Source: Escherichia coli
GTDB lineage: Bacteria > Pseudomonadota > Gammaproteobacteria > Enterobacterales > Enterobacteriaceae
Reading direction: 5' to 3' (one strand)
DNA length: 36,551 nucleotides
Assembly (NCBI RefSeq): GCF_003334765.1
Contig: NZ_QOWT01000037.1
This document shows positions 12,879-30,388 of this stretch, piece after piece; the first letter of the stretch is position 1, and every line of letters begins with the position of its first letter. The notes under the pieces are model-generated. The model did not search any database. It had not been told where the DNA came from and saw only the letters and a program-made list of their open reading frames with translations. Position numbers and translations under genes: made by a program.

Positions 12879-15515
12879 ATGTCATATCTGAATTTAAGAC
12901 TTTACCAGCGAAACACACAATGCTTGCATATTCGTAAGCATCGTTTGGCTGGTTTTTTTGTCCGGCTCTTTGTCGCCTGTGCTTTTGCCGCACAGGCACC
13001 TTTGTCATCTGCCGAACTCTATTTTAATCCGCGCTTTTTAGCGGATGATCCCCAGGCTGTGGCCGATTTATCGCGTTTTGAAAATGGGCAAGAATTACCG
13101 CCAGGGACGTATCGTGTCGATATCTATTTGAATAATGGTTATATGGCAACGCGTGATGTCACATTTAATACGGGCGACAGTGAACAAGGGATTGTTCCCT
13201 GCCTGACACGCGCGCAACTTGCAAGTATGGAGCTGAATACGGCTTCTGTCTCCGGTATGAATCTGCTGGCGGATGATGCCTGCGTGCCATTAACCTCAAT
13301 GATCCATGACGCTACTGCGCATCTGGATGTTGGTCAGCAGCGACTCAACCTGACGATCCCTCAGGCATTTATGAGTAATCGCGCGCGTGGTTATATTCCT
13401 CCTGAGTTATGGGATCCTGGTATTAATGCCGGATTGCTCAATTATAATTTCAGCGGAAATAGTGTACAGAATCGGATTGGGGGTAACAGCCATTATGCAT
13501 ATTTAAACCTACAGAGTGGGTTAAATATTGGTGCGTGGCGTTTACGCGACAATACCACCTGGAGTTATAACAGTAGCGACAGTTCATCAGGTAGCAAAAA
13601 TAAATGGCAGCATATCAATACCTGGCTTGAGCGAGACATAATTCCGTTACGTTCCCGGCTGACGCTGGGTGATGGTTATACCCAGGGCGATATTTTCGAT
13701 GGTATTAACTTTCGCGGCGCACAATTGGCCTCAGATGACAATATGTTACCCGATAGCCAAAGAGGATTTGCTCCGGTGATCCACGGTATTGCTCGTGGTA
13801 CTGCACAGGTCACTATTAAACAAAATGGGTATGACATTTATAATAGTACGGTGCCGCCGGGGCCTTTTACCATCAACGATATCTATGCCGCAGGTAATAG
13901 TGGTGACTTGCAGGTAACGATTAAAGAGGCTGACGGCAGCACGCAGATCTTTACCGTACCCTATTCGTCAGTCCCGCTTTTGCAACGTGAAGGGCATACT
14001 CGTTATTCCATTACGGCAGGAGAATACCGTAGTGGAAATGCGCAGCAGGAAAAACCCCGCTTTTTCCAGAGTACATTACTCCACGGCCTTCCGGCTGGCT
14101 GGACAATATATGGTGGAACGCAACTGGCGGATCGTTATCGTGCGTTTAATTTCGGTATCGGGAAAAACATGGGGGCACTGGGCGCTCTGTCTGTGGATAT
14201 GACGCAGGCTAATTCCACACTTCCCGATGACAGTCAGCATGACGGACAATCGGTGCGTTTTCTCTATAACAAATCGCTCAATGAATCAGGCACGAATATT
14301 CAGTTAGTGGGTTACCGTTATTCGACCAGCGGATATTTTAATTTCGCTGATACAACATACAGTCGAATGAATGGCTACAACATCGAAACACAGGATGGTG
14401 TTATTCAGGTTAAGCCGAAATTCACCGACTATTACAATCTCGCTTATAACAAACGCGGGAAATTACAACTCACCGTTACTCAGCAACTCGGGCGCACATC
14501 AACACTGTATTTGAGTGGTAGCCATCAAACTTATTGGGGAACGAGTAATGTCGATGAGCAATTCCAGGCTGGTTTAAATACTGCATTCGAAGATATCAAC
14601 TGGACGCTCAGCTATAGCCTGACGAAAAACGCCTGGCAAAAAGGACGGGATCAGATGTTAGCGCTTAACGTCAATATTCCTTTCAGCCACTGGCTGCGTT
14701 CTGACAGTAAATCTCAGTGGCGACATGCCAGTGCCAGTTACAGCATGTCACACGATCTCAACGGTCGGATGACCAATCTGGTCGGTGTATACGGTACGTT
14801 GCTGGAAGACAACAACCTCAGCTATAGCGTGCAAACCGGTTACGCCGGGGGAGGTGATGGTAATAGCGGAAGTACAGGCTACGCCACGCTGAATTATCGC
14901 GGTGGTTACGGCAATGCCAACATCGGTTACAGCCATAGCGATGATATTAAGCAGCTCTATTACGGAGTCAGCGGTGGGGTACTGGCTCATGCCAATGGCG
15001 TAACGCTGGGGCAGCCGTTAAACGATACGGTGGTGCTTGTTAAAGCGCCTGGCGCAAAAGATGCAAAAGTCGAAAACCAGACGGGGGTGCGTACCGACTG
15101 GCGCGGTTATGCCGTGCTGCCTTATGCCACTGAATATCGGGAGAACAGAGTAGCGCTGGATACCAATACCCTGGCTGATAACGTCGATTTAGATAACGCG
15201 GTCGCTAACGTTGTTCCCACCCGTGGGGCGATCGTGCGAGCAGAGTTTAAAGCGCGCGTTGGGATAAAACTGCTCATGACGCTAACCCACAATAATAAGC
15301 CGCTGCCGTTTGGGGCGATGGTGACATCAGAGAGTAGCCAGAGTAGCGGCATTGTTGCGGATAATGGTCAGGTTTACCTCAGCGGAATGCCTTTAGCGGG
15401 AAAAGTTCAGGTGAAATGGGGAGAAGAGGAAAATGCTCACTGTGTCGCCAATTATCAACTGCCACCAGAGAGTCAGCAGCAGTTATTAACTCAGCTATCA
15501 GCTGAATGTCGTTAA
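12879..15515 (+). CDS. fimD: outer-membrane fimbrial usher
   Basis: 878-aa ORF; ggagg upstream; usher-family sequence in the expected position. Confidence 0.95.
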   Translation: MSYLNLRLYQRNTQCLHIRKHRLAGFFVRLFVACAFAAQAPLSSAELYFNPRFLADDPQAVADLSRFENGQELPPGTYRVDIYLNNGYMATRDVTFNTGDSEQGIVPCLTRAQLASMELNTASVSGMNLLADDACVPLTSMIHDATAHLDVGQQRLNLTIPQAFMSNRARGYIPPELWDPGINAGLLNYNFSGNSVQNRIGGNSHYAYLNLQSGLNIGAWRLRDNTTWSYNSSDSSSGSKNKWQHINTWLERDIIPLRSRLTLGDGYTQGDIFDGINFRGAQLASDDNMLPDSQRGFAPVIHGIARGTAQVTIKQNGYDIYNSTVPPGPFTINDIYAAGNSGDLQVTIKEADGSTQIFTVPYSSVPLLQREGHTRYSITAGEYRSGNAQQEKPRFFQSTLLHGLPAGWTIYGGTQLADRYRAFNFGIGKNMGALGALSVDMTQANSTLPDDSQHDGQSVRFLYNKSLNESGTNIQLVGYRYSTSGYFNFADTTYSRMNGYNIETQDGVIQVKPKFTDYYNLAYNKRGKLQLTVTQQLGRTSTLYLSGSHQTYWGTSNVDEQFQAGLNTAFEDINWTLSYSLTKNAWQKGRDQMLALNVNIPFSHWLRSDSKSQWRHASASYSMSHDLNGRMTNLVGVYGTLLEDNNLSYSVQTGYAGGGDGNSGSTGYATLNYRGGYGNANIGYSHSDDIKQLYYGVSGGVLAHANGVTLGQPLNDTVVLVKAPGAKDAKVENQTGVRTDWRGYAVLPYATEYRENRVALDTNTLADNVDLDNAVANVVPTRGAIVRAEFKARVGIKLLMTLTHNNKPLPFGAMVTSESSQSSGIVADNGQVYLSGMPLAGKVQVKWGEEENAHCVANYQLPPESQQQLLTQLSAECR

Positions 15516-24705: not shown

Positions 24706-25098
24706 ATGATGCGCCAATCACGTCAGGCTGTTTTACCTGAAATTTCAGGCAATAAAACGTCATCGCTGCGTAAATCAATATGTAGCGATCTCCTCACTCT
24801 TTTTAATTCTCCTCATTCGGCATTACCGTCATTACTTGTTTCAGGCATGCCCGAGTGGCAAGTGCATAACCAGAGCGACAAACATCTCCAGAGCTGGTAT
24901 TGCCGTCAGCTGCGTTCTGCACTGTTATTTCATGAGCCACGGATTGCGGCGTTGCAGGTCAATCTGAAAGAAGCGTACAGCCACACGCTGGCGATCAGCC
25001 TTGAGATAATGCTGTACCACGACGATGAACCGCTAACGTTTGATCTGGTCTGGGATAATGGCGGTTGGCGTAGTGCGACGCTCGAGAATGTCAGCTAA
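24706..25098 (+). CDS. iraD: anti-adaptor protein IraD (inhibits RssB-mediated RpoS degradation)
   Basis: ORF 24697..25098; ATG at 24706 gives [24 protein letters not shown]... (130 aa); the 3' end overlaps convergent hypT by 8 bp. Confidence 0.85.
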
Positions 25099-26002
25099 GT
25101 ACAATCTCCAGCTCGCGCAGTTCACGCCAGAAGCGTTCGGCAACTGGATTCATGCGGGTATTCATTCGGTATGCATAGGCCTGAATCGGGATCACCAGTT
25201 CGTCCCGATTCAGTACAACGAGCTGCCCGCTGCGAATTTCTTGTTGGATGGCGTACTCCGGCAGCCAGGCAATCCCACAGCCGTCGAGGGCAACCTGCTT
25301 TAAAAGCTCGCTCATCGAAGAGACAAAAAAGGTGCTGAAACTTAACTCACTGTGGCGCGTCAGGGTGCGATTAATCAATCGCCCCATGTAGGAGTTGCGG
25401 CTGTAATTCAGTAACGGAAAGTGTGGCTGCGCGAGGTTAAAAAGTGCTTCTCCGTGTTCGTCACTGGCGCAGACAGGGAACAATTGAGATTCAAATAAGC
25501 GAATGTGGTCAAACGGCGCTTCCAGCAAATCTTCGTCGTGAAAGGAAAAAATACAGTCACTTTGCCCTTCACGCAGTTTATCGACCGCTTCATCGACATC
25601 AATAGCTTCAATTGCCCAGGTAAAGAGCGGCGGCATCTGGCTGATAATGGACGGTAACAGCCCGAGGGAAAGAGAGTGTGCAGCGGCTATTTTAATTTTG
25701 CGTTGCGCGTAATCGCTGCCACCACGGAGTTCTGCAAGGTTGCTCTCTAACTGTTGCAACAGATGGCGGATCTGCGAATGGAATATTTTACCTTGTTCCG
25801 AGAGTTGCAGCGGCGTCACCTGGCGGTTAAACAATTCAACGCCAATCGCCTGTTCCAGCGCACGGATGCGGCGGCTGAATGCCGGTTGCGAGACGTTGCG
25901 ACTGACTGCTGCCTGGGAAAAATTGCGGCATTTTTCCAGGGTCAGAAAATCATAAAGCCATTTAGTTTCAATATTATGCAAAACCGCACCACAGTCATCC
26001 AT
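25091..26002 (-). CDS. hypT: LysR-type transcriptional regulator (hypochlorite-responsive HypT/YjiE)
   Basis: 303-aa ORF with an N-terminal LysR HTH (...[41 protein letters not shown]...). Confidence 0.9.
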
Positions 26003-26066
26003 TACGTTTTACTCTGTCAGCCGCCCTTGCGGGCATTCTACGTCCATTCGGGCGGCTGACAACCGT

Positions 26067-27239
26067 TTATGCCGTTTCAAACGTTCCTTTCACGCAGGCT
26101 TTGCCGTCTTTGACCATCAGCTTGCCGCGAGCGTATACCTGCTCAATGCGTAATTCTGGCGTCATGACCAGTAAGTCTGCGTCATTGCCTGGCAGAATTT
26201 CGCCTTTCCCGCTCAGGTTAAGGAAACCGGCTACGCTACTGGTGAGCGGGCGCAGGGCATCGCTGATACTGAAATCATAATCTTTGACCAGCACCTGCAC
26301 GGTTTCCAGCAACGTTTCAAAACCGGCAACACCGATATGGGTTAAATTCCCTTCGTCATCGAAGAACGGCTGGCTACCGTTGCCGTCGGAGCTGAGGGTG
26401 ACGCGTGCCAGCGGAATACCCGCCTGAACGGCGCGGGCAATACCTTCGGCAGGGGCGACTGGTTCGTCAATGCTGCTGGTGATATCGATGGTGCCGCCTT
26501 TGCGCGCGAACTCCAGCGCCTGCTCAAACAACGGAACGTTGCGGTTAACGTGGGTCGGCAGCAACTTGCTAATCGGCACATCGCAGTTTTCCAGCAGGTC
26601 ATAGACAGGCTGTAACGCCTTTTTGCTGTCGCCCATGTGGAACACGGTGACGCCAGGTTTACCGCCGAGCAAACCGCCAACGCGGGATTCCGCCGCCATA
26701 TTAGCCAGGTGATAAACGTCCGGTGCGGCAGAACGGTGATCAGAGATGGCGCATTTCACGCCAATCACGCGATCGATAATCGCCACGTCTTTTTCCACGG
26801 AACCCGTAATAGTGCGGGAAGGGACATGATAAGCGCCGGTCAGCATCCAGGCGCTGATGCCTTCTTCATTGAGCGCACGGGTCTTGGCGAGCAGGGATTC
26901 CGGGTGGCGAGAGATAGAGTCGGTGCCCAGCAGACCAACCACTGACGTGACGCCTGCTTCCGTCAGACGACTTAACGCCACTTCCGGCGTGCGCGTCGTG
27001 GGACCTGCTTCGCCGCCACCGCCAATCAAATGGACGTGTTGATCAATAAAACCTGGGCAGAGGATCTGCCCGCTGAGATCGACAACCGTGCAGTCCGGTA
27101 CAATGTCAGAAGGGATATTACTGGCAACGGCGATAATTTTGCCGTTAGCGACGAGGACATCGCAAATTCCCCGATCTTCCGGCGCATACAAATGCGCTCC
27201 CTGCAGCAGGGTAAAACCGGCTGCGGTATAATCAATCAT
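26067..27239 (-). CDS. iadA: isoaspartyl dipeptidase
   Basis: 390-aa ORF MIDYTAAGFTLLQGAHLYAPEDRG... with amidohydrolase motifs (…FIDQHVHLIGGGGEAG…). Confidence 0.95.
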   Translation of the reverse strand: MIDYTAAGFTLLQGAHLYAPEDRGICDVLVANGKIIAVASNIPSDIVPDCTVVDLSGQILCPGFIDQHVHLIGGGGEAGPTTRTPEVALSRLTEAGVTSVVGLLGTDSISRHPESLLAKTRALNEEGISAWMLTGAYHVPSRTITGSVEKDVAIIDRVIGVKCAISDHRSAAPDVYHLANMAAESRVGGLLGGKPGVTVFHMGDSKKALQPVYDLLENCDVPISKLLPTHVNRNVPLFEQALEFARKGGTIDITSSIDEPVAPAEGIARAVQAGIPLARVTLSSDGNGSQPFFDDEGNLTHIGVAGFETLLETVQVLVKDYDFSISDALRPLTSSVAGFLNLSGKGEILPGNDADLLVMTPELRIEQVYARGKLMVKDGKACVKGTFETA

Positions 27240-27251
27240 GGTAACTCCTTG

Positions 27252-27713
27252 TTAAACAATAAGCTGCATAACCCAGATCGACAGCAATGCGTTAATCACG
27301 CAGACCGTAATGATATGCGGGTAATATTTGGCATTCACTTCGGCTGTCCCCAGGCAGCGACCGACATTTTGCACCGGGTTGCCCATTAAATACATCGCGG
27401 GCAGTAAAACGGTGACATCGTGACCGGTTAATGCGCCAGCGGTTGCCAGACTGGCGGCAACACCGACTGCGCCACCCATACTCATTAATGCGGCTAAAAG
27501 GACGGTTGCCGCTTCACCGGGTAATCCCCACAGCGCCATTACGGGTTCACAGATATGCCCCACCCAGTCGAGCAGGCCGGTAATTTTCAGCGCCTGAATG
27601 ATGACAAACGCCATCACCACGTTTGGCAGCAGGTTGGTCGTGGCGATAGTAAAGCCACGGCGCGCACCATCGATAAACATATCCATGACGTTTTTGCGGA
27701 CCTGAGTTGTCAT
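27252..27713 (-). CDS. yjiG: inner-membrane protein YjiG (SpmB-like)
   Basis: 153-aa hydrophobic ORF; its stop lies 12 bp before the iadA start; overlaps the yjiH stop by 4 bp. Confidence 0.9.
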   Translation of the reverse strand: MTTQVRKNVMDMFIDGARRGFTIATTNLLPNVVMAFVIIQALKITGLLDWVGHICEPVMALWGLPGEAATVLLAALMSMGGAVGVAASLATAGALTGHDVTVLLPAMYLMGNPVQNVGRCLGTAEVNAKYYPHIITVCVINALLSIWVMQLIV

Positions 27714-28393
27714 GCTTGCGCTCCTTGCGTTGGGTTGCGACGTTCTTCGAAGTTAAGCCAGACGCGCAAAATGTTGGCTCCGACAAATTTAAACACCAGG
27801 ATGACTGCTAAAGGTACGATTACGGACGTGCCCAGAAAGGCAAACACCGCGACGCCGGAAGAGAAGTAGTTGGTGATAATGGCGCTACCGCTGGTTTGAT
27901 ATGCGGCGAAAATCACTTTATCGCGTTCGGTAATTTCACCTTCCTGCGCCAGCTCTTTGGTCATACCTGCGGCGGCATCGGTGTTTTGCAGGTTAGCGAT
28001 CAGCGCCAGCGAGCAGATCCCTGGAATGCCCAACAACGGTTTTAGCACTGGCGTCATTAACTGCTGCGCGGCGCGTAATCCGCCAAGACCATCGGTAATT
28101 GAAATAATCCCCAGAGAGAGAATGACTGACGGTGCCAGCTCCAGCGCAAAGAGAAAGCCATCTTTAGCCCCCGCGCCACCCGCGCCGCGAAACGAGGTGG
28201 TGGCTCCGTTCGCACCAGGCAGTTGCCCAAACGATCCGTTCAGAACGGAAAAATCAAAAACGCGCCACCAACTGTCTGTCCCGGAAAAAACACCGGAAAA
28301 AAAGATTATGGTGAGAAAAAAAGCCAGATACCCTTTAATGCCCACTTTTTCTGTCGCCAGCTCCCCGGCTACAGCATCCCCTTGTTGTGTCAT
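27710..28393 (-). CDS. yjiH: inner-membrane protein YjiH (nucleoside-recognition/SpmA-like)
   Basis: ORF 27710..28405; ATG at 28393 (MTQQGDAVAGELATEKVG...) chosen for about 227 aa. Confidence 0.85.
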   Translation of the reverse strand: MTQQGDAVAGELATEKVGIKGYLAFFLTIIFFSGVFSGTDSWWRVFDFSVLNGSFGQLPGANGATTSFRGAGGAGAKDGFLFALELAPSVILSLGIISITDGLGGLRAAQQLMTPVLKPLLGIPGICSLALIANLQNTDAAAGMTKELAQEGEITERDKVIFAAYQTSGSAIITNYFSSGVAVFAFLGTSVIVPLAVILVFKFVGANILRVWLNFEERRNPTQGAQA

Positions 28394-28642
28394 AACAATC
28401 CCCATTGTTTTTTTGTGTTTGTGTGTTGCTTGAGCCAGGAAAATTCCTGGAGCTGAAAAACCTTATCAGCCATGTGGGTATGGGGAAAATGCAAGTATGT
28501 TTCTGACTATGCGTTTTTTGCATAGCGGTAAAATTACGCTGTGTGGAAAAGGTTCTACGCAGGATTGAGTTGCAGAAAATTCATAAACCCAGTGACAATG
28601 ACATAGTAAATAAAAAACAGATAATCCAGGGACGAAAACGCG

Positions 28643-29197
28643 ATGGCAAAGTACAACGAAAAAGAGCTGGCGGATACGAGCAAGTTTTTAAGTTTTGTCC
28701 TCCGACACAAACCGGAGGCGATTGGTATCGTACTGGACCGTGAAGGATGGGCGGATATCGATAAGCTCATACTTTGTGCCCAAAAAGCGGGCAAGCGGTT
28801 AACCCGTGCATTGCTGGATACTGTGGTTGCCACCAGCGATAAAAAGCGTTTTAGTTATTCCAGTGATGGTAGGTGCATCCGCGCGGTTCAGGGGCATTCG
28901 ACTTCGCAGGTCGCTATTTCCTTTGCCGAAAAAACACCGCCACAGTTTCTCTACCACGGTACGGCAAGCCGTTTCCTTGACGAGATAAAAAAACAGGGGC
29001 TGATTGCAGGTGAGCGTCACTACGTACATCTCTCTGCTGATGAAGCAACGGCACGCAAAGTGGGAGCAAGACACGGATCGCCGGTTATTTTAACCGTCAA
29101 AGCACAGGAAATGGCGAAACGAGGCCTCCCTTTCTGGCAAGCGGAAAACGGGGTCTGGCTGACATCAACGGTTGCGGTTGAGTTTCTTGAGTGGTAA
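28643..29197 (+). CDS. kptA: RNA 2'-phosphotransferase (Tpt1/KptA)
   Basis: 184-aa [45 protein letters not shown]... Confidence 0.95.
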
Positions 29198-29209
29198 GGG
29201 AAACTTCCC

Positions 29210-30388
29210 TCATGAAGTGACCACTTGTAGCTTAAATAATTGCACTGTGCTGATAAGCGCAGCAATAAACAACGCCGCCGCGCCGCAGAGAGTGGCGCTG
29301 GCAAGCGCCGATGTTCCATTGCCGAGCATACTGGTCAGCGCCGGGCCGAGGATTTGCCCAATGCCGTAAATGAGCGTCACAAAGCCTAAAAGATTGAGAT
29401 TTCCCGGTACGCTCAGTTGGCGGGCGATAGTCATCACCAGAGATGTCGTGCCCATAAAGGTACCGCCAAAACCAAGACTGCTGATGATAAGCAAGAGAGG
29501 CGAGTCGCTGGCGAGAGTAAGCAGCACACAGATAGCCTGCACCAGCAAATTCGCCGTCAGGCAGGGCAAAGCCCCCCAACGTTTTGCTGCCCATAGCCAG
29601 CCAAAGCAACCAGGCACAATTGATAAGCCGACTAACGTCCAGAGATGGGCGGTTAACAATGGTGAGCCTGCATCTTTCGCCATGAGCGGCAGGTAAGTCG
29701 CGACGATGATATAACCAAATCCCGCCAGGCCGTACAGAATAGCCAGTAACCACCAGCTCATTATCTGTTGCTCCGTTTTTGCCAATGGCATTGGTGTGAT
29801 GGCGTGTTTTTTCGAGGGCATTAAAAGCGTAAGTGCAATCAGCATCATGCCAGAAAGCGCCCCGGCGCCTTGCCATAACGTTTGCGAGGAGAGGTCAAAA
29901 TGCAGGCCTGCCAGAACATATTCATTGCCCAGTGCGATGCCAATGCCAACGCCAGAAAACAAAGCTGCCAGCACAAAAGGATGGCGCGTGTGCTGCATAA
30001 TCAGCGTCGAACCAAAAATCAGCATACCGGCGCTGGCGACACCCGCCAGGACGCGAATCAATAACACCAGAATAAATGGCGGCAACCATGCCATTGCGAG
30101 GATCAACAACCCGCTCGCCAGGGCAGAAGCCAACAGAAATGGGCGCAGGCGCGATGGCTGGTGAAATGCGCCAAAAGAAAATAGCAGACTGCCAGCCAGA
30201 TACCCCGCATAGTTGCCGCTGGCAATCCACGAGAGCTGGCTAAATGAAAACGATCCTTCCGCCATCATGACGGGCAACATAGGCGTATAAAGGAAGCGGC
30301 CTAAACCCATACCTAAGGTCAGAACCAGCATCCCGAAAAGCGCGGTGCTGAAAGAAAAGCGTTCTACGGGATGCGTGGACGAAGGCAT
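29210..30388 (-). CDS. yjiJ: MFS-type transporter YjiJ
   Basis: 392-aa polytopic membrane ORF, convergent with kptA. Confidence 0.9.

Follow-up and report, generated by a model that had tools for sequence, protein, structure and literature searches.

The yjiH-proximal half of the spacer between yjiH and kptA in Escherichia coli is, in our judgment, probably the regulatory region of yjiH-yjiG-iadA. Comparison across genomes points to two unrelated elements in it, an operator of the LysR type (most probably bound by HypT, also named YjiE) and a hairpin at the 5' end of the yjiH mRNA. The DNA that we analyzed (the window) is a 36,551-nucleotide (nt) stretch of E. coli around yjiH, colinear with, though not identical to, that of K-12 MG1655 (window coordinate + 4,532,287 = MG1655 coordinate). 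A first-pass annotation of the window had described "paired" palindromes between the yjiH start and kptA, as possible operators or leader-RNA structures. Both palindromes do lie in the 249-nt spacer that separates yjiH (27710-28393, minus strand, annotated start 28393) from kptA (28643-29197, plus strand, start 28643). The first, P1, reads CCAGGAA-aa-TTCCTGG (28435-28450; arms of 7 nt, gap of 2 nt), letter for letter and position for position as annotated. For the second, P2, the position was right and the hyphenation misplaced one g; it reads CTATGC-gtttttt-GCATAG (28507-28525; arms of 6 nt), with a true gap of 7 nt. Each of the two functions offered in the annotation fits one palindrome: P2 is operator-like, with a conserved sequence that recurs at fixed spacing, and P1 behaves as a leader hairpin, as indicated by covariation and strand-specific G·U pairs. 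Two of its suggestions did not survive. The palindromes are not a pair, being different kinds of element 56 nt apart, and they have no tie to kptA, which is missing from this place in Salmonella, Citrobacter, Hafnia, Serratia and some Escherichia that nevertheless keep the whole block.

Within the E. coli sequence by itself P1 and P2 do not stand clearly beyond chance. Among perfect inverted repeats whose gap is 10 nt or less, the spacer holds four with arms of 6 nt or longer, where dinucleotide shuffles give 1.07 (P = 0.06), and one with arms of 7 nt or longer, where they give 0.27 (P = 0.19). The case rests instead on the comparison of genomes. The insignificant excess would suit the view that both palindromes are accidents of an AT-rich spacer; conservation across genera and covariation, described below, contradict that view, and we regard it as scarcely credible. 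Conservation across enterobacteria had been proposed in the annotation as a check. It holds for the sequence of P2, while for P1 the sequence is not conserved and the pairing is.

The spacer was found in 5390 of 5426 complete E. coli genomes. Across 28300-28700 the window differs from MG1655 at 15 positions, none of them inside P1 or P2; two fall in the yjiH-proximal 132 nt (28452 and 28506) and 12 in the kptA-proximal 117 nt. Both palindromes are unchanged in six divergent E. coli strains, in which positions directly beside them vary. We then scanned for YjiH with one genome per species and obtained 68 loci, 17 of them orthologous (Escherichia spp., the Citrobacter amalonaticus group, Salmonella arizonae and diarizonae, Pluralibacter, Entomohabitans, Hafnia and Mixta) and 51 with other YjiH homologs. 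The shared order, read in the yjiH sense, is [C/T]TATGCA-N5-ACGCATAG, a 12-nt linker, TTGCATTTT, 20 nt, TGnTAAGGT, the hairpin, a CA-rich leader, the Shine-Dalgarno sequence and ATG. P2 is thus the distal part of a composite, ATGC-N7-GCAT-N16-GCAT(TTT). Of the 17 orthologous loci, 16 have the exact composite in the same position; the exception is Mixta, where it is missing and yjiH is disrupted. No promoter composite was found at the 51 loci with other YjiH homologs; the two of these whose genes were examined (Enterobacter cloacae and Citrobacter portucalensis) have no iadA or LysR gene in the 1.5 kilobases (kb) downstream.

The region becomes alignable exactly at P2. As means over seven lineages, identity is 45% in the 19 nt upstream of P2 (no invariant column), 94% in the P2 arms (9 of 12 columns invariant), 83% in the linker at 28495-28506 (6 of 12), 100% in TTGCATTTT (9 of 9), 62% in P1 (1 of 16) and 72% in the remainder of the leader at 28406-28434. 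P2 is near-invariant from Escherichia to Hafnia and Serratia, and in Hafnia the A-tract spacer of the dyad is inverted, as fits a symmetric dimer site. What lies upstream is not constant: a yjiJ-like transporter gene, and not kptA, directly adjoins the yjiH region in Salmonella and Citrobacter, the surroundings in Hafnia and Serratia are unrelated, and E. whittamii retains only a remnant of kptA. Since kptA is not the upstream neighbor in most genomes that keep the block, the block belongs to yjiH. By this comparison kptA would be an insertion of the Escherichia lineage. Its annotation in E. coli EcPF14 and O157 strain 7784 is that of a frameshifted pseudogene, and in E. whittamii, E. albertii and Escherichia sp. 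MOD1-EC7003 it is either deleted or present only as a remnant; thus, it looks dispensable and recently acquired at this position.

The spacing of the conserved block outlines a predicted promoter. P2 (no strand assigned) has the core ATGC-N7-GCAT and the T-N11-A dyad of a LysR recognition site, in the form of the TGC-N7-GCA inside CTATGC-N7-GCATAG. On the minus strand it is followed by the linker TCAGAAACATAC (28495-28506), which with the AG that ends P2 forms the fixed N16, by the proximal GCAT half-site TTGCATTTT (28486-28494) and by a predicted extended -10 element TGATAAGGT (28460-28468; TGnTAAGGT). The predicted yjiH transcription start, placed from the -10, is at 28453-28454 on the minus strand (about MG1655 4,560,740/41). 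The distance from TTGCAT to the end of TAAGGT is exactly 35 nt in 16 of 17 orthologous sequences and 36 nt in Hafnia; the n of TGnTAAGGT varies among A, G and T, and the TG and TAAG are kept. The candidate -35 is a poor TTTCCC. Counted from the predicted start, itself set by TGnTAAGGT at its fixed spacing, P2 is centered at about -63, as befits a recognition-binding site, and the proximal half-site spans about -41 to -33, over the weak -35, where an activation-binding site would be expected. In one record, E. coli 88-3493 (locus L001), a 20-base-pair (bp) tandem duplication CTTATCAGCCATGTGGGTAT at about 28442-28461 doubles the predicted -10 region, and the copy at the correct operator distance reads TGATAAGAT. 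This is the sole record in the 80-90% identity band.

LysR-type promoters such as those of BenM, CbnR and OxyR combine a recognition site, a T-N11-A dyad near -65, with an activation site near -35. The yjiH site resembles them in its T-N11-A dyad about 63 nt 5' of the predicted start, in the second, weaker site over a poor -35, and in the adjacency of a regulator gene, which is divergent in Providencia, Mannheimia and the SRL-type island described below. It departs from the usual layout in E. coli, Salmonella, Citrobacter, Hafnia and Serratia, where the regulator gene is downstream and co-directional. Unlike at the known promoters, the proximal site is visible only as a single GCAT(TTT) half-site. 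The dyad predicted to lie near -63, with a second site over the -35, would reproduce the arrangement of LysR recognition and activation sites, which is why we propose binding by HypT/YjiE. A tetramer of the regulator would bind both parts of the composite, centered at about -63 and about -38, and would activate a promoter with a weak -35 and an extended -10. HypT/YjiE, encoded just downstream of iadA, would be both binder and activator of yjiH-yjiG-iadA. Its signal might be the published one, hypochlorite and methionine oxidation, or a metabolite of an acidic D-amino-acid or isoaspartyl-dipeptide pathway, the latter because the linked genes suggest such a pathway. What the sequence comparisons show is conservation, covariation, fixed spacings and linkage to the regulator gene; where transcription starts, which protein binds, in which direction it regulates and what the hairpin does we infer from them.

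The linked genes recur together. The order yjiH-yjiG-iadA-LysR, with a convergent gene for a racemase of the Asp/Glu family, is kept in Hafnia, Serratia, Salmonella and Citrobacter, and the genomic surroundings differ. The racemase gene was located at L077:11349-12083, L075:11291-12028 and L079:11309-12043 among the loci of this set; at its position E. coli carries iraD and no racemase. The LysR genes of the module are HypT orthologs, with 69% identity in Hafnia and 81% in Salmonella by BLASTP and 71% in Serratia in our alignment A6. The Salmonella racemase scores above the cut-off of the NCBIfam model for CuyB cysteate racemase. We scanned these loci for the dyad, and in each of the four genera found a copy 5' of the racemase gene. 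The racemase-sense copies have the same three-part layout and the same N16. Thus, the Salmonella racemase promoter reads TTATGATTTTTACGCATAG-CCGCTAATAAAACG-GCATTTT-17 nt-TGATAGTGT and the Salmonella yjiH promoter TTATGCAAGAAACGCATAG-CACGATACATACTT-GCATTTT-17 nt-TGATAAGGT.

More distant HypT-family genes, taken from one protein search, served as a test of the composite prediction. In Edwardsiella, Providencia, Mannheimia and an SRL-type E. coli island a HypT-family gene (55-66% identity, alignment A6) adjoins a racemase-DcuA operon, and is divergent from it in the last three. All four loci have ATGC-N7-GCAT-N16-GCAT in the racemase upstream region, in two tandem copies each in Mannheimia (L083:5852-5990) and Edwardsiella (L081:9186-9349). 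TGnTA lies 20 ± 1 nt past the proximal GCAT in 11 promoter sites of yjiH and racemase genes; the distance is kept at most racemase sites, the Edwardsiella and Mannheimia racemase promoters being exceptions. One of the two Mannheimia copies lies 10-45 nt from the LysR start codon and could serve autoregulation. Over nine loci, the window and eight others (147 kb, both strands), the exact composite with its 12 fixed bases has 12 matches against 0.0 in shuffles, and 18 against 0.43 when one mismatch is allowed. All of these lie in yjiH or racemase promoter regions, a few being the palindrome read on the other strand. In the nine loci the composite occurs only beside HypT-family genes, so that operator and regulator are linked. 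The winged-helix DNA-binding domain is near-invariant in the eight regulators of alignment A6; in its SQPAFSRRI stretch, which by analogy with other LysR regulators may be the recognition helix, only the P varies (P or S). Elsewhere in the window, the only P2-like dyad with at most two mismatches is CTGTGCTTTTGCCGCACAG at 12977, which is the chance rate. By eye, and against consensus sequences, sigma-54 promoter, CRP, NtrC and PurR-type readings of P2 and its surroundings gave no match.

Several observations weigh against HypT as the activator. The upstream regions of K-12 fhuA and metN contain no composite; a single dyad with one mismatch, 145 nt upstream of metN, is at chance frequency. Either the published sites are of low affinity or indirect, or HypT is not the binder. 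Neither does the iadA-hypT spacer contain a composite, and E. coli hypT, instead of being divergent, lies downstream of the operon on the same strand. A simple sigma-70 scan missed the proposed yjiH promoter, because the -35 is poor, and no binding, footprint or transcription start for yjiH turned up in the supplementary data from Kim 2012, Conway 2014, Ettwiller 2016 and Mendoza-Vargas 2009. Our literature search found no paper connecting HypT with yjiH, yjiG or iadA and no chromatin immunoprecipitation or SELEX (systematic evolution of ligands by exponential enrichment) study of HypT. Lastly, the footprints of HypT (YjiE/QseD) at Salmonella fhuA, TTACGTTATCATTCA and AACCCTTCCTTTTCA, described as pseudopalindromic and about 100 bp apart, are unlike ATGC-N7-GCAT (PMC6397515). 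The composite and the fhuA sites have in common the protein family and the description as pseudopalindromic; they differ in spacing (102 nt there, 16 nt in the composite) and show no resemblance in sequence, and conservation across families, as found for the composite, is not reported for the fhuA sites.

These differing footprints would be explained if P2 and the proximal GCAT were a real operator for another factor, either a global regulator with a CytR-like or NsrR-like half-site or an unlinked LysR-type protein. TTGCATT seems close to both the CytR octamer GTTGCATT and the NsrR half-site ATGCATTT. Such a factor would have to track HypT-family genes through three gene arrangements, since the composite is confined to their neighborhood in nine loci from at least three families, with downstream, convergent and divergent gene orders and differing targets. 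In the HypT-family proteins the DNA-binding domain is conserved along with the motif, and the layout of the site is that of LysR-type promoters. We therefore consider another binder unlikely, and HypT/YjiE the best candidate.

P2 could alternatively act as RNA, by forming a hairpin either in a long yjiH leader whose promoter lies farther upstream or in a transcript related to kptA. It folds well on either strand (z = -4.3 and -3.7), and a sigma-70-like TTGCCA-17-GATTAT on the minus strand (28649-28621), which overlaps the kptA start and is directed towards yjiH, could start a long leader. The arms of P2, however, are invariant and do not covary, racemase promoters, which are unrelated, have the same sequence with a fixed spacing to the -10 element, and most genera that keep P2 lack the upstream sequence, the candidate promoter and kptA included. 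An RNA role for P2 is thus very improbable.

P1 behaves in the opposite manner to P2, with a changing sequence and a constant pairing. In the yjiH mRNA it is predicted to be the stem-loop CCAGGA-AUUU-UCCUGG (28435-28450, minus strand), about 4 nt from the predicted 5' end and followed by a CA- and A-rich leader remainder (28406-28434, minus strand) for which no pairing is predicted. RNAfold gave a stem of 5-7 bp at near-constant position in every ortholog, with -7.4 to -11.2 kcal/mol for the stem-loops alone, and the hairpin starts 10-11 nt past the -10 hexamer in most genera. The stem arms are CAGGAA/UUCCUG in Escherichia, CAGGCC/GGCCUG in Citrobacter, CGGGCU/GGCCUG in Salmonella, UGGGUU/GACCCA in Pluralibacter and CUAGCC/GGCUGG in Hafnia. 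For the alignment of P1 the loops were masked, the 5' arm was positioned by its distance from the -10, with Hafnia and one Citrobacter lineage treated individually, and pairing with the 5' arm served as the anchor for the 3' arm. In this alignment 98.5% of the cells are paired, an upper estimate that anchoring on pairing inflates, the number of distinct compensated stems being unaffected, and five of the six pairs have changes on both sides. Neither the observed covariation score nor the paired percentage was reached in any of 500 shuffles, and when the partner was slid by 1-3 columns the pairing fell to 29-58%. RNAalifold on a plain MAFFT alignment of the region found no structure, because the variable loops misaligned the 3' arms. 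The inflated percentage counts against the hairpin, as do the longer leaders of Serratia and Hafnia and the lack of an evident 5' hairpin in the Serratia leader, which was inspected by eye. Six cells of the alignment hold G·U or U·G pairs, which can form only in the yjiH-sense strand; this argues that the structure was selected in RNA of that polarity and not in duplex DNA or in a kptA-sense transcript.

The strand-specific pairs also bear on the alternative that P1 is a DNA element, either the operator of a second protein or merely two Dcm sites. In Escherichia P1 is a perfect 7+7 palindrome and its arms are two CCWGG motifs, CCAGG (28435-28439) and CCTGG (28446-28450), as that alternative would have it. 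The sequence differs in every genus with the pairing kept, however, and what are G·U pairs in the yjiH-sense RNA would become A·C mismatches in the complementary strand or in a cruciform of the DNA. No CCWGG is found outside Escherichia, so the Dcm motifs are probably incidental. A DNA role for P1 is highly unlikely, and judged by the alignments P1 is not a protein site.

Bacterial mRNAs can be stabilized by stem-loops at their 5' termini, for example by the hairpin in the 5' untranslated region of ompA. P1 is like these stabilizers in being a short stable hairpin a few nt from the predicted 5' end with an unstructured leader after it, and unlike ompA in that the 5' end of yjiH is predicted and about 4 unpaired nt would precede the stem. 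We suggest, with low confidence, that P1 is most likely stabilizing: a 6-bp stem-loop some 4 nt inside the predicted 5' end of the yjiH mRNA would shield the message from decay that depends on the 5' end. It may have a role in early elongation or translation. The conserved hairpin might also have another job, in early pausing or attenuation, as a processing or protein-binding site, or as a switch with the downstream leader. That the structure is under selection agrees with such a job as well, and in Escherichia a second hairpin, AACAAU-GGGG-AUUGUU (28394-28409, minus strand), holds the Shine-Dalgarno GGGG in its loop directly 5' of the yjiH AUG, so that the leader may be regulated. The E. coli leader fold consists of P1 and this Escherichia-only hairpin (-14.6 kcal/mol, z = -2.4). 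Other observations speak against these functions. No T-run or U-tract follows P1 in any ortholog, as an intrinsic terminator or attenuator would need, and a scan of 28300-28750 found no terminator-like site. No alternative pairing with the CA-rich leader is predicted. The best Rfam 15 hit over 27900-29300, Bacteroides-1, scores 21.7 bits where the gathering threshold is 43 (E = 0.65), which is chance level. The loop does not retain GGA, which makes a CsrA-type site unlikely. Another job for the hairpin is thus doubtful, though less so than the DNA role. As a stem preserved through compensatory change between close genera, P1 is a clean small case.

Neither a LysR-type operator nor a 5' hairpin is a new kind of element; the link of yjiHG-iadA to a HypT operator appears to be an undescribed assignment. 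In a table derived from RegulonDB, yjiHG-iadA has no regulator entered (PMC6469107), and one transcriptome study groups iadA, yjiH and yjiG as down-regulated gene targets (PMC13311989). In the Shigella flexneri SRL island orf7 is LysR-like, orf8 encodes an aspartate racemase and orf9 DcuA, and orf8-orf9 confer use of D-aspartate; the paper describes no operator and no test of orf7 (PMC6980539). The same genes stand beside HypT-family genes in the E. coli island, likened to SRL by the gene trio, and in Providencia and Mannheimia, with the composite in the divergent region. Unlike the SRL module, the window has no racemase and DcuA genes, and its motif is at yjiH-yjiG-iadA instead. Deletion of a Vibrio HypT homolog gave no hypochlorous acid (HOCl) phenotype (PMC5935101). 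The use of D-aspartate in SRL, the CuyB-type label of the racemase and the null result in Vibrio together make it plausible that the HypT family ancestrally controls isoaspartyl-dipeptide and acidic D-amino-acid metabolism.

Tentatively, and with somewhat more doubt than belief, we suggest that HypT/YjiE/QseD, which is known as the regulator specific to hypochlorite, is at root a pathway-specific LysR regulator of a mobile module that salvages damaged or D-form acidic amino acids, with ATGC-N7-GCAT-N16-GCAT as its high-affinity operator, and that K-12-type genomes lost the racemase and were left with only the yjiH operator copy at the locus. The proposed module consists of the Asp/Glu-family racemase with DcuA, or of YjiH-YjiG with the isoaspartyl dipeptidase IadA. 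If this is true, HypT would be induced naturally by a metabolite (D-aspartate, a beta-aspartyl dipeptide or cysteate, for example), and the reported HOCl regulon would be secondary. HypT has no agreed DNA motif, its published footprints being weak pseudopalindromes, and a family-wide candidate operator at genes for isoaspartyl dipeptides and acidic D-amino acids supplies a precise sequence, a promoter and a short list of candidate inducers. A "stress" regulator may in this way connect to the scavenging of the protein-ageing products isoaspartate and D-aspartate, and a little-studied operon and a puzzling regulator gain a testable link.

The remaining genes of the locus follow yjiH on the minus strand: yjiG (27252-27713), iadA (26067-27239) and the putative regulator gene hypT/yjiE (25091-26002), the last two scoring above the cut-offs of the IadA and HypT equivalog models, with iraD beyond hypT. 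On the other side, kptA is followed by yjiJ on the minus strand. The hypT gene may share a transcript with the yjiH-yjiG-iadA operon. The iadA-hypT spacer holds a perfect 12-bp inverted repeat (26015-26061), TGTCAGCCGCCC/GGGCGGCTGACA, whose arms are 23 nt apart and enclose a promoter-like TTGTCA-16-TAGAAT on the hypT strand; the repeat could be an operator or an RNA stem for hypT's own expression. An in-frame ATG at 28405, four codons 5' of the yjiH start, is not conserved outside Escherichia, which supports the annotated start at 28393. Just 5' of kptA lies a sigma-70-like ATGACA-16-GATAAT (10 of 12; 28598-28625, plus strand), whose leader would be only about 11 nt. In the Citrobacter freundii group (L024-L030, L034 and L060) a different conserved block, GTCGTTTTTCTCC..GTTTGTCTTTAACTTGACC..GTGATG..GTCAC, stands about 100 nt upstream of a yjiH paralog that belongs to a yjiH-yjiG pair. 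L026, the sole locus of the group with listed open reading frames, has no iadA or hypT in the 1.5 kb downstream. The block suggests that this paralog has a separate regulator.

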